Source: a virus (taxonomy: Duplodnaviria; Caudoviricetes). From it: a stretch of 64,000 bases of DNA. Both the position numbers and the translations under genes were made by a program. The notes beneath the pieces were generated by a model. The model was not told the origin of the DNA. It was given only the letters and a program-made list of their open reading frames with translations, and ran no database searches. Each line of letters starts with the position of its first letter. Position 1 is the stretch's first letter. Location: positions 22,762 to 86,761 of the IMG/VR virus record IMGVR_UViG_3300028586_000001, one strand, 5' to 3'. Shown in pieces: positions 43,861-47,661 of this stretch.

Positions 43861-46800
43861 TTAAGCGAGGTTCGGCGTACCGTAATTCGCTGCGGCCCAC
43901 ACAGCAGCTTGGTCTGCTTGTTCTGCCGTCAGCACAACTGGGTAGTCGATCACCCGGTAGATGTAGCCGTCAAGTGGAGCAGTAACCGTGCTGGAAGACG
44001 TACGTGCACCCATCGTAACCGTTCCCATGGTGGTTGGGGCAGCTCCATTCCCGGTGCCGGGAGTAGCCATGCCGTCGATGTACACCGTGATTGCCGTTCC
44101 GGCAGGATCAAACGTCACTACGGCCACATGCAGTGTACTCAGGGCGTTCCCGCCTGCCATCGTAACATCCGTGGTGCCGCCTGATCCAGAGCGACGTGCA
44201 TTGACGCTACCGTTCAGAAGCAATTGCTCGCGGTTGGCCGTTGCTGCGGAAGCAGAGTTCGCCCGGTCGAATACAACCGCTGCTGCGGAAGATGTCACCG
44301 GCTCGAAGATAAGAATCTGCGAACCACCGATACCTTGCGGGGCCACGCCACGAAGGTTTTGCGTGAACGCTTTATCGAACTTGGCCGCATAGCGGTTGTT
44401 CGGGCGCAGCACGCGGGTAGGTGACGATGCTGGCGTATCGTTGGAAAGCGTCAGCGTACCACCATCGGATGGGGCCACGGCGCTGATGATCGGCGGGTTG
44501 GCCGTCGTGTCCATCGTCAAGGTCGAACCCTTGTCGAAGTCCCACGAGTTACGAATAGTCGGGGAACCTGTGAGCACTGGAGGTGCAACACCAGTTCCGG
44601 TATTCGCTGCGGTCACCGTGAGAGCAAGTGCCGCCTGCTTGGTTTGACCGACGCTGTTTGTCACAGTAGCGGTCACGTTGCCACTGAACGCTGCGGTTGG
44701 AGTGCCCGTGATCAAGCCAGTCGAGTCGTTGTAAGACAGGCCCGCTGGCAAGCCAGACACTGCGATGGTTTTGGTGCGATTGCCGTTGGCGTCCGATACC
44801 AGAACGCCGCAGTCGGCCTTGGCGTACAGGTCATAGCTGTAGGCGGTGCCGACCACGACGTTAGGCAGCGCGGTCACAGTCCAACGTGGACCGATGTTGA
44901 TGATAGTGCGGTGTGGCACGCATGCGCTACCTGGCATCGAAGTGTACCGGACGACCATGAGGCGACCGGCCTTGTTGTCTGGCTTTGGCTTGGTCGAGGT
45001 GATCGCAGGTGTGCCGCTAATCTTCAGTGCTGCCAGGTCGTAAGTCATACCTGGAGGAACGAGCCGGTAGCCGCCATCACCATCACCACCCGGTTCATTG
45101 GACTCCTGCGCCCACGACTCGATGTTCTCGGTCACGGCGCCGCCCCAAAGGTCCGTTGCGGTAGGCAGGTTGATGTCGATTGCTGCGCCATGGTCGACGT
45201 TGTAGGTCTGATGCGCGATTTTCGGCTGGTAGCAGACACCCGTTGGGGTCATCGCCGCGTAGTAGGCCACGTCGATGATAGCGCCGGCTGAACCCGCTGC
45301 AACCCAGTCTGCATCGACATAAGGGTCTCCACCGAAATCGGCTGTGTGGTTGGTGAACATGACCTGGAATGGCCGGGTCACGTCCGCGACACCCGCGCTT
45401 CCTGCGATCTGGCGAATGTACGACAGGGCAGTATCGCCGCCACCGTTTGCCTGATTGCTATAAAAGTTGAGCGTACCGTCAGCCAGGATTTCAAAGCGGT
45501 AGGTGTAATCGACCCCGTTGAGATAATCGAACAGCGGACCACCGTTTTGTGTGCTGCCGTTGCCGTTCCATGCAAAGCGGTTCGACTGGATATGCAGACT
45601 CGTCGCCTCGAAGTCGATTTCGGTTCCGTTGTAGGAGCCTACGTTATTCACCTGCTGCGCCCAGAACGTCGGGTGCCAGCCGCGCATGTTGGGCTGCTGG
45701 CGGGTCAGGGCCATGCGAGATTCAAGCACAAACGGCGCCGTGATAAGCATCGTAGCTGCGGTGTTGATCATGGCCGAAGCGTTCGGCATGTCCGTTGGGA
45801 ACATGGCCCGCTCTGCTACCGATGCCGTACGGGACTTCAGTTTCAGACGCCCGCCCGTGGTTTGGATCAGGTCACTGAACGTACTCACCGCGACACCTCG
45901 ATTGGCGTCATTCAGGCCGGTGTGCAAGTGGTCCATGTCCGCACCCTTCAGTGCCAGAGAGCCTGTATTCGTCCGAGGACCATTCCCAGCTCCCAGGCCC
46001 ATGTACGAGCGGGTTGGAGAATACTTGCCCAGGGGAGTACCAGGACCAATGACGCTGACCGGCTCATTGAAGTCGTCACCGGCAGTGACAAGGTACGAAC
46101 GGCCACCACCTGTCTCGATGGTGCTGCCCACGGTGTACGGCCCGATGGCACTTGGCGATCCTGCGGCAATGCACACTGCGCTGTTGGCGCTCATGTTGGC
46201 GGTCGAGCCTGCACGGTTGGTTGCCGTGTCTACCACGGTGAACGTCTTGCCGACATCGGCTGCAACAGGGGTGTAGCCCGAAGCGGTTGCGACCAGCGTG
46301 CCGCCCGAGTAGATCGTGCGAATAACGGTTGCGGTCGGATTCGCGTTCTTGAACGTGCCAGAGGTGATGGCCAGAGGGGTGCCGACCTGGGGAGTGCCAT
46401 TGACCGATGGCGCTGTGTTGATCTCGGCCTTGCTGTCAACTGGTTCGACATAGTCGGAAGCCACACCCATTCGATCCATGAAGATCGTTTTTCCGCTGAC
46501 GGTGTCCCGAATACCAGTGAAGGGGATGGACAGCATGCAGTCGCTATCTTTCGATCCTGCCTGGATTTTGGCGTCACCGAATTTCATGGCAGCAATCGTG
46601 AACGCGTACCCGTTCTTGCTACCGTCGCACAGGACAAACTGGAGACTGGTCTTGGTGTTGTTCAGGAACTTGTCATACATGGAACCGTCAGCAAGGTACA
46701 CCTCCATCGTGCCGGTCACCTTAACCGTGCCGAGGCCAATGTTTGCGTTACCGCGCTCACCAATGGCATCTTGTCCACGCAGGGTGTTGTCGAGGGACAG

Positions 46801-47661
46801 GTCCAGTTTCTTGATCTTGGTCGCGGTCAGGGCCACGCCGCCTTCCAGGAGCTGGCCAAGGCCCGAAACCGCATTCATAACCTCGAAATTCTGGGACGCA
46901 ATCGGCGTACCGGGCATGATCGATGCGTTGTTGCGGGCGCCACGTTTGCCCATGAACTCCATCGAGCCGGTCAGGATCGAGCCGGATGCAAGTGAGAGGC
47001 TGAGCTTCGACGGGACCATACCCGTGAACGGGAAGAACTGGCTCACGTCATTGTGCGCACGCTCGAAGGTGAAGGACTTCTTGGTCACACCGTTGGAGAT
47101 GCGCGAAGCCGACAGGGTCGAGGCTTTGGCCGTCGCATCGGCGACCAGGGGGGTTGCCGGATCGACCGTGATACTGGCGGTTGTCGGCGCGATGGTCGCG
47201 TGGACTTTCAGAAACTTTTTGTCGTTGACACTGCCTGGGCATCGGAACTGGAACCACTGCCCAGCTTTCAGGCCGGTGAACGCTGAGGTTCCGGTCGGTG
47301 CTGCGGCAGCAACAATGGTGCTGGCCGTCGTGGTAGCCTGGAACGATTCGCCCACACCACCGACACCATAGACTTCCCAGGCCGGGGCCATCAGCATGGC
47401 ACGGAACATGACATCGAATTCACGATAGGAGAGTTCGATGTTGATGCCGCCAGCGGCTGACGCGCCGGTCTCGATCAGGTCGGCAGTCTGCCGGTCTGAG
47501 ATGATTTCTCCAGATTCAGTTTTAGAGATTGAGAAGGCGAGAGATTCCCCGGTCATCCTCAGATTATTGGGATTGCCGGTAGTCGGCGTGACGCCGTACT
47601 CCGACTCCTCGATATAGCGCACTTGCGCCAGATTCGATGATGCAAACTCTTGGGTTGGCAT
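43861..47661 (-). CDS. tail tube protein fused to Ig-like, GH16 glycoside hydrolase, Ig (He_PIG-like) and LamG/ConA-like domains
   Basis: About 400-aa tube domain (YIEESEYGVTP, LRMTGESL, SDRQ); GDDFN, WHPTFW, EIDFE; LPAGLSYN..TGLITGTP; lectin-like C-terminus. Confidence 0.75.
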   Translation of the reverse strand: MPTQEFASSNLAQVRYIEESEYGVTPTTGNPNNLRMTGESLAFSISKTESGEIISDRQTADLIETGASAAGGINIELSYREFDVMFRAMLMAPAWEVYGVGGVGESFQATTTASTIVAAAAPTGTSAFTGLKAGQWFQFRCPGSVNDKKFLKVHATIAPTTASITVDPATPLVADATAKASTLSASRISNGVTKKSFTFERAHNDVSQFFPFTGMVPSKLSLSLASGSILTGSMEFMGKRGARNNASIMPGTPIASQNFEVMNAVSGLGQLLEGGVALTATKIKKLDLSLDNTLRGQDAIGERGNANIGLGTVKVTGTMEVYLADGSMYDKFLNNTKTSLQFVLCDGSKNGYAFTIAAMKFGDAKIQAGSKDSDCMLSIPFTGIRDTVSGKTIFMDRMGVASDYVEPVDSKAEINTAPSVNGTPQVGTPLAITSGTFKNANPTATVIRTIYSGGTLVATASGYTPVAADVGKTFTVVDTATNRAGSTANMSANSAVCIAAGSPSAIGPYTVGSTIETGGGRSYLVTAGDDFNEPVSVIGPGTPLGKYSPTRSYMGLGAGNGPRTNTGSLALKGADMDHLHTGLNDANRGVAVSTFSDLIQTTGGRLKLKSRTASVAERAMFPTDMPNASAMINTAATMLITAPFVLESRMALTRQQPNMRGWHPTFWAQQVNNVGSYNGTEIDFEATSLHIQSNRFAWNGNGSTQNGGPLFDYLNGVDYTYRFEILADGTLNFYSNQANGGGDTALSYIRQIAGSAGVADVTRPFQVMFTNHTADFGGDPYVDADWVAAGSAGAIIDVAYYAAMTPTGVCYQPKIAHQTYNVDHGAAIDINLPTATDLWGGAVTENIESWAQESNEPGGDGDGGYRLVPPGMTYDLAALKISGTPAITSTKPKPDNKAGRLMVVRYTSMPGSACVPHRTIINIGPRWTVTALPNVVVGTAYSYDLYAKADCGVLVSDANGNRTKTIAVSGLPAGLSYNDSTGLITGTPTAAFSGNVTATVTNSVGQTKQAALALTVTAANTGTGVAPPVLTGSPTIRNSWDFDKGSTLTMDTTANPPIISAVAPSDGGTLTLSNDTPASSPTRVLRPNNRYAAKFDKAFTQNLRGVAPQGIGGSQILIFEPVTSSAAAVVFDRANSASAATANREQLLLNGSVNARRSGSGGTTDVTMAGGNALSTLHVAVVTFDPAGTAITVYIDGMATPGTGNGAAPTTMGTVTMGARTSSSTVTAPLDGYIYRVIDYPVVLTAEQADQAAVWAAANYGTPNLA

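Follow-up and report, generated by a model that had tools for sequence, protein, structure and literature searches.

A duplicated tail tube gene fused to a GH16-like glycanase and lectin-like arm: a candidate minor subunit for decorating a long phage tail

Glycan depolymerases of phages are known from tail tips, fibers and spikes. Tail shafts, to our knowledge, are known to carry only small immunoglobulin-like (Ig), FN3 or carbohydrate-binding decorations. Double-domain tube proteins of the T5 pb6 and P74-26 type form trimeric rings. In phage SPP1 and in the lactococcal phages of the 936 group, where the long form is called TpeX, a fraction of the tube subunits bears an extension; in TpeX the terminal part of this extension is a carbohydrate-binding module with specific binding to host cells (PMC6669499). 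In pb6 of T5 the C-terminal Ig domain is peripheral (PMC5717097). Here, we describe a gene from the IMG/VR virus record IMGVR_UViG_3300028586_000001 (86,761 bp) in which a complete tail tube protein continues into an arm of 865 amino acids (aa) with a GH16-like glycanase fold, Ig-like domains and a lectin-like C-terminus. The gene is a single open reading frame (ORF) of 1266 aa, P0001, in the last 64 kb of the record, which is the whole stretch of DNA that was analyzed (the window). The evidence leans, with moderate confidence, towards a minor tube subunit that polymerizes together with the major one and carries arms for binding and cutting glycans on the tail.

A search of the whole record with PF18906 (Phage_tube_2) returns two matches, the fusion ORF and a 401-aa frame at G000:C1:2214-3419(-). 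The latter is found outside the window, with ~1 kb between it and the tape measure gene downstream. It has the tail terminator on one side and the chaperones and the tape measure on the other, which is its place in the canonical order of large terminase, portal, protease, major head protein, Neck1, tail terminator, tube, two chaperones and tape measure. The earlier note on this DNA had proposed to look for such a second tube gene and had remarked that the fusion stands far from the usual tube position. Both points are borne out, since the canonical place is taken by an 87%-identical paralogue. The fusion copy is not flanked by the tail terminator and the chaperones or tape measure, and its gene follows the lysis genes instead. 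The canonical protein can be aligned over its entire length, without gaps and at 87% aa identity, to residues 1-401 of the fusion. At the nucleotide (nt) level the two copies are 80% identical; the similarity starts about 12 nt 5' of the ATG (TAAGGAAC[G/T]GGC) and stops at the last sense codon. At this 3' limit the canonical gene has a TAA and a terminator hairpin, and the fusion stays open in frame.

In a maximum-likelihood tree of the two copies and 18 orthologues, the copies are sister branches with support of 100/100, and the duplication is therefore recent and took place within this phage lineage. The canonical copy shares 82% and 80% identity with its closest orthologues. With a synonymous divergence (dS) of ~1.0 and a dN/dS of 0.083, purifying selection acts on the duplicated tube copy. 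Recent gene conversion between the two copies was considered and is ruled out by the fairly even nucleotide identity along the gene (73-85%).

The N-terminal part of the fusion has the tube fold that the earlier note had assigned to it. PF18906 matches aa 10-383 with 135.2 bits against a cut-off of 27, and the whole 266-position profile is covered. For aa 1-510 an AlphaFold2 model was made that has high confidence in the tube part. Its best Foldseek match is 8xan, the major tail protein of phage SH-Ab15497 (E 1e-20, TM 0.86), which also matches the module by sequence (E 3.8e-20). The next structural matches are T5 p140 (7qg9_G, E 1.7e-10, second-best), the P74-26 tube and T5/DT57C pb6. Where 38 orthologues are conserved to 90% or more, the fusion keeps 84 of 87 positions and the canonical protein 85 of 87; the 54 differences between the two copies fall mostly at variable positions. 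Since the conserved positions of the family are kept, the polymerization surfaces are presumably intact, and co-polymerization with the major subunit would be expected.

Beyond the tube module the protein continues with a chain of predicted beta-rich domains. The first of them (aa ~415-500) is 62% identical to a domain of an otherwise unrelated 839-aa metagenomic protein, P0007, and aligns at 39% with a stretch of P0008 that Pfam names IG_AIR9. It has no Pfam match of its own and the model is of low confidence there, so that this domain can be called Ig-like by transitive homology only. From the identity to P0007 it follows that this linker was acquired separately from the rest of the arm.

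The remainder (aa 511-1266) was modeled with an 84-sequence alignment and reached a predicted local distance difference test (pLDDT) value of 93.4. Its first domain superimposes in VIA-align on the P. furiosus laminarinase 2vy0 with Z 24.6 and 2.5 Å over 234 residues, and the top 36 matches are all GH16; Foldseek gives E 1.6e-10. A profile made from the 84 homologues, searched against the PDB, finds the same laminarinase as the best GH16 enzyme (E 1.7e-12) and matches more than 40 GH16 chains. Identity to the solved GH16 enzymes is 13-18%. The GH16 assignment rests on this family profile and on the fold, because the Pfam GH16 model does not match the single sequence, neither in the whole protein nor in four excised segments at E up to 10. 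The catalytic motif is intact. In the family profile 'ElDf.E' falls on 'EIDImE' and 'gwHptfW' on 'GLWPAFW' of 2vy0. The three acidic residues E681, D683 and E685 are kept in 77/84, 71/84 and 83/84 homologues, and W667 of the upstream GWHPTFW in 82/84. The ExDxE spacing lacks the beta-bulge residue of laminarinases, as in lichenases, and the substrate cannot be read from this lack.

The small beta-sandwich that follows (aa 809-925) has no family match. It is succeeded by a He_PIG domain that scores 37.3 bits in the whole protein (cut-off 24, E 3.7e-9) and 42.6 bits on the excised segment. The C-terminal domain (aa 1032-1255) superimposes on domain 4 of AbnA (5hon, 5hp6) with Z 20.6-21.1 and 2.4-2.5 Å over 193 aa, its family profile matches the N-terminal lectin domain of NanB (E 1.2e-4), and it is probably a carbohydrate-binding module. 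Other than He_PIG, no Pfam LamG or Ig model matches the whole protein or the four segments at E up to 10. A phmmer search of the arm against PDB sequences finds SraP only, through the He_PIG domain, and no family in PHROGs covers the arm. The domain order given in the earlier note, with an Ig-like repeat after the tube, a GH16-like domain with intact ExDxE and an upstream WxPxFW, a further Ig domain and a LamG-like C-terminus, agrees with these results, as do the limits and the strand of the ORF and the position of EIDFE (45607-45621); for the first Ig-like domain the agreement comes by the transitive route.

The arm has relatives of its own. At least 148 representative proteins match it at E 1e-30 or better in an exhaustive search. 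Many of the matches listed are large multi-repeat proteins that match through He_PIG only, and about 30 of the listed ones span the full GH16-to-LamG module in one stretch, most of them with 750-1000 aa. None of these ~30 alignments covers the tube module, and Pfam records none in the five annotated proteins. Outside this phage the module is seen only in stand-alone phage proteins (P0002-P0006, P0009-P0015), which have 766-1031 aa and other N-terminal anchors and are 37-57% identical to the arm over the full length of the module. In the nearest ones (P0002, P0003, P0005) the N-terminus of ~45 aa consists of three G-x-Y-x-x-V repeats. Portal and terminase genes neighbor the stand-alone homologues in IMG/VR contigs, and three of the homologues (L005:2163-4601, L007:9827-12208, L012:9812-12187) adjoin the portal gene on contigs of unrelated phage types. 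A full-length homologue with 42% identity (L042:7896-10205) is found in a phage-like region of Herbaspirillum huttiense LMG2199, together with large terminase and portal. This cultured betaproteobacterium is a tractable host for testing the enzyme family. In the same region, a small gene similar to the end of a tail fiber precedes the homologue. The arm belongs to an unnamed GH16-related family. The pattern is the usual one for receptor-binding and depolymerase proteins, which combine a conserved head with a virion anchor that can be exchanged; here a tube protein takes the place of the anchor.

The earlier note had further given the fusion gene a putative promoter of its own and flanking terminators. 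The promoter could not be upheld: a sigma-70 scan finds none upstream of the gene, the matches in the region are no better than those in shuffled controls, and by eye only an extended -10-like TGTTACTAT is seen. The downstream terminator is strong. The upstream hairpin is weaker and has a broken U-tract, and it is probably a leaky terminator or an attenuator. An internal start codon with a Shine-Dalgarno sequence, which would yield a free arm, was searched for between aa 380 and 530 and none is present; the gene is predicted to give one translation product. A perfect anti-Shine-Dalgarno complement (AAAGGAGGTGATCC, 47762-47775(-)) lies just past the stop of the 47787-48332 gene and has no properly spaced start codon; the only ORF at this site is a 68-aa GTG frame (47564-47770) that overlaps the fusion start out of frame. 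At the canonical locus, a terminator-like hairpin with a U-rich tail (L003, G000:C1:2150-2215(-)) stands directly after the tube gene and ahead of the chaperone genes, which fits high expression of the tube and lower expression of chaperones and tape measure.

The earlier note had left two options, a shaft coated with glycanase throughout or a minor paralogue doped into the tail. The second fits better and the first less well, because there is a separate major tube gene, the fusion is the last gene of the late region and is preceded by a hairpin, and the arm is bulky. In the sequence of events that we picture, the major tube gene was duplicated together with its ribosome-binding leader, and the last codon of the duplicate became the exact junction to a mobile arm, taken from other phages, with Ig, GH16, beta-sandwich, He_PIG and ConA/LamG-like domains. 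The product would enter mixed trimeric rings of the T5/P74-26 type around the ~2460-aa tape measure. As the C-terminus of such tube proteins points outwards, the arm is expected to stand out from the shaft. Because the fusion is encoded separately, last among the late genes and behind a hairpin, it would probably be supplied in fewer copies than the major subunit, and the arm would thus stand at some positions only. The lectin and Ig domains might then bind a beta-linked glycan of the host surface or matrix and the GH16 domain might cut the same glycan. The outcome would be reversible adsorption, and a very long tail that works its way through exopolysaccharide, capsule or biofilm.

How long such a tail could be is suggested by the lambda rule of ~1.5 Å per tape-measure residue, by which ~2460 aa would correspond to an unusually long tail near 370 nm. 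With a rise of ~40 Å per ring, which is our own estimate, this would amount to ~90 trimeric rings. A more specific version holds that the shaft of this siphophage is itself enzymatically active, the sub-stoichiometric subunit being placed at random along the ~370 nm tail as a 'depolymerase brush' of GH16 and lectin domains, with a copy number set by gene dosage and transcription and not by ribosomal frameshifting. We hold this version only tentatively and give it a little less than an even chance.

This way of decorating a tail, in which the arm would probably be displayed along its length, was not found in the collections and the literature searched. A word-indexed search of proteins with 696-2216 aa gave no other long tube fusion, and P0007 and P0008 match there via the Ig domain only. 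The longest of 48 PF18906 frames in 401 Pseudomonadota genomes has 508 aa, and none of 233 phage records with a tube match covers more than ~34% of the query. None of 50,697 deposited phage genomes was matched by the GH16 domain in tblastn. The closest relatives are represented by two tube proteins, P0158 on a 26.5-kb contig and P0159 on a contig of 87,041 bp. Scanning IMG/VR with P0159 returned only relatives at 48-51% identity, and a metagenome scan for tube relatives had distant tubes only among the matches listed. In the literature searched, neither a long form from a duplicated gene nor a GH16 arm is described on a tail tube protein, which is not proof of absence.

Several observations weigh against a co-polymerizing and enzymatically active subunit. 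The fusion protein is seen in one metagenome-assembled genome (cluster of 1 member, 1 contig), and five distant IMG/VR relatives, in records that are 35-63% complete, have a single tube copy and no GH16 module. The fusion's tube branch is ~3.5 times longer than the canonical one (0.12 vs 0.034), thus the fusion module evolves faster; its changes, which are concentrated at aa 93-185 and 240-249, could have altered the contacts. Three arms of ~90 kDa on each ring may hinder assembly and confine incorporation to particular positions. On the enzymatic side there is the missing Pfam GH16 match, and the GH16-fold matches listed include Rv0315 (4wzf), a protein without activity.

The strongest of the alternatives, which we still consider unlikely, starts from the tube module. 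The paralogue would form one or a few dedicated rings near the tail tip or under the terminator, like T5 p140, and three enzyme arms would thereby have a fixed place. Minor tube-like rings are an established notion, p140 ranks second after 8xan among the structural matches, the clustered substitutions on the longer branch could retune contacts, and the bulk of the arm favors few copies. However, a paralogue with 87% identity and 84 of the 87 conserved positions shows no obvious interface difference from the major subunit, and in T5 the p140 gene lies with the tail-tip genes and its product has diverged widely from pb6, whereas the fusion gene lies after the lysis genes.

Marginally less likely is an arm that sits on the tail and only binds. 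The GH16 domain would be a lectin, as in pseudo-glucanases, and the arm would serve reversible binding alone. Such a role would agree with the known tube decorations, which are binders (PMC6669499), with the missing Pfam match and the low identity to solved GH16 enzymes, and with the presence of the inactive 4wzf among the structural matches. It sits less well with the full catalytic triad, which is aligned with the motif of active enzymes and is kept in 92%, 85% and 99% of the 84 homologues even though their identity to the fusion falls as low as ~22-30%, as expected for a working active site.

Slightly lower again we rank an enzyme that is not part of the virion at all but is released at lysis and degrades a matrix glycan to free the progeny, the tube module acting as a scaffold or oligomerization unit. 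A dN/dS of 0.083 across the tube module, together with the kept conserved positions, is hard to explain for an inert scaffold. Moreover, the stand-alone homologues stand in structural modules by portal and terminase and have short N-terminal anchors, which suggests that the arm is normally borne by the virion. Position argues on the other side, since the gene directly follows those for the holin-like protein, the endolysin and the phrog_1544 protein, and its unit has a hairpin at either end.

That the fused ORF is an assembly chimera of two related phage strains joined at the tube gene, as a metagenome assembly with an end repeat like an assembler overlap and a protein on one contig only might suggest, is highly improbable, because there are two clean similarity boundaries (~12 nt before the ATG and at the last codon) and not one crossover, because 73-85% nucleotide identity (80% overall) is too low for a 127-mer mis-join, and because both copies have proper neighbors and the frame is open for 865 further codons that encode well-folded domains.

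We return to the minor, co-polymerizing subunit as the favored reading, and to the surroundings of its gene (Table 1). The record carries a 127-bp terminal repeat of the size of an assembler overlap and is therefore probably a closed circle. On the plus strand, up to 43.6 kb, the window encodes functions of replication and nucleotide metabolism (helicase, primase, a split family-A polymerase, RNR, ligase, SbcCD and ThyA). The late genes are on the minus strand and run from the window end downwards, beginning with the tape measure and continuing with tail-tip and fiber genes, the holin-like gene, the endolysin, the phrog_1544 gene and, last, the fusion ORF. The placement after the lysis genes that the earlier note had described is hence correct, with endolysin and holin-like gene upstream on the same strand. 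Between the tail-fiber and the lysis genes lies a 151-aa ORF (49372-49827(-)) that matches phrog_1128 ('enoyl-CoA hydratase/carnitine racemase-like', E 1e-33) and overlaps the ORF 49290-49751 on the same strand.

Table 1. Features of the fusion gene and its surroundings (window positions unless stated otherwise; aa numbering of P0001)
Feature	Position	Strand	Description
Bidirectional intrinsic terminator	43819..43850	.	A6-GGCCCUCC-loop-GGAGGGCC-U4; separates the fusion gene from the convergent thyA/dfrB-like genes; -26.4 kcal/mol, z -6.1
Whole ORF P0001, 1266 aa, ATG start	43861..47661	-	tube paralogue with Ig, GH16, beta-sandwich, He_PIG and ConA/LamG-like arm
ConA/LamG-like beta-sandwich, aa 1032-1255	43897..44568	-	like AbnA domain 4 and the NanB lectin domain
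He_PIG Ig-like domain (PF05345), aa 930-1017	44611..44874	-	similar to SraP adhesin modules
Small beta-sandwich, aa 809-925	44887..45237	-	He_PIG-like 'PPGMTYDLAALKISGTP' motif; putative, from the secondary structure of the model
GH16-fold beta-jelly-roll catalytic domain, aa 511-808	45238..46131	-	model, Foldseek, VIA-align, family profile
EIDFE (E681, D683, E685), aa 681-685	45607..45621	-	falls on EIDImE, the catalytic motif of the GH16 laminarinase from P. furiosus
Ig-like domain, AIR9-A9 type, aa ~415-500	46162..46419	-	homology to P0007 and to the IG_AIR9 stretch of P0008
Tube module, aa 1-401	46459..47661	-	complete double-domain tail tube; duplicate of the phage's own 401-aa major tube protein
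Leader TAAGGAACGGGC	47662..47673	-	immediately 5' of the ATG; common to the canonical tube gene (TAAGGAACTGGC); 5' boundary of the duplicated stretch
GC-rich hairpin followed by UUUGCCUUU	47722..47757	-	after the last gene of the lysis region and ahead of the fusion gene; broken U-tract; -24.8 kcal/mol, z -2.9
Lysis region	47787..49324	-	directly upstream of the fusion gene; holin-like 48926-49324, endolysin 48376-48960, phrog_1544 protein 47787-48332
Tape measure gene	57688..63999, continuing into G000:C1:1-1239	-	crosses the record junction/end repeat; 2458-2474 aa in full

If the fusion is indeed built into the tail, the full length of a very long tail could bind and cut matrix or capsule polysaccharide, which bears on how long-tailed phages pass biofilm and exopolysaccharide. 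It would also represent a second evolutionary route to tails of mixed subunits, by gene duplication with own expression signals as opposed to programmed frameshifting. As a principle of design, a second copy of a tube gene might serve to display on tails any cargo that is fused to the C-terminus of its product.

With regard to the catalytic domain, the fusion shares with the GH16 endo-beta-glucanases (P. furiosus laminarinase 2vy0, ZgLamC, SCLam) the jelly-roll fold of clan GH-B, the Glu-Asp-Glu motif and the WPxFW strand. It differs from them in its low identity, in having ExDxE in place of ExDxxE, in the lack of a PF00722 match and in being part of a phage-borne multi-domain protein. With the stand-alone phage homologues (L005, L007, L012, L042) it has the whole module of GH16, beta-sandwich, He_PIG and ConA/LamG-like domains in common, but these have a short repeat anchor or other N-terminal domains and lack the tube module and the AIR9-type Ig domain.

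Among tube proteins, T5 pb6 and the P74-26 protein have the same double tube-domain fold, and the extension of the fusion leaves the C-terminus, where pb6 has its peripheral Ig-like domain (PMC5717097). In contrast to the situation described here, pb6 is the sole shaft subunit of T5, its decoration is one Ig domain of 85 residues, and the identity of pb6 and the P74-26 protein to the fusion is 8-11%. T5 p140 offers the precedent of a second tube-fold protein in one phage, and the fold matches (7qg9_G). Yet p140 is strongly diverged from pb6, has no enzyme arm and forms one fixed ring, whereas the paralogue here is 87% identical to the major subunit and its gene is not among the tip genes.

The closest resemblance is to the extended major tail proteins gp17.1* of SPP1 and MTP-TpeX of the 936 phages. 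In all of them a tube module is followed by an adhesin or carbohydrate-binding extension, here in the order tube, Ig, GH16, beta-sandwich, Ig and lectin-like domain, and the C-terminal extension projects from the shaft on a fraction of the subunits, which in our case is what the genes suggest. The long form in SPP1 and the 936 group arises by programmed frameshifting from the same gene. In the phage described here the canonical gene has a TAA stop with a terminator hairpin behind it, and the long form is encoded by a separate copy with 87% aa and 80% nucleotide identity, ~18.5 kb away and after the lysis genes. The arm measures 865 aa compared to ~100-250 in SPP1 and the 936 phages, and a GH16 catalytic domain is absent from the tube extensions described in PMC6669499. 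On balance, and by analogy, it seems rather probable that the fusion is a variant of the gp17.1*/TpeX theme that was reached by gene duplication rather than by frameshifting, and to which an enzyme has been added.

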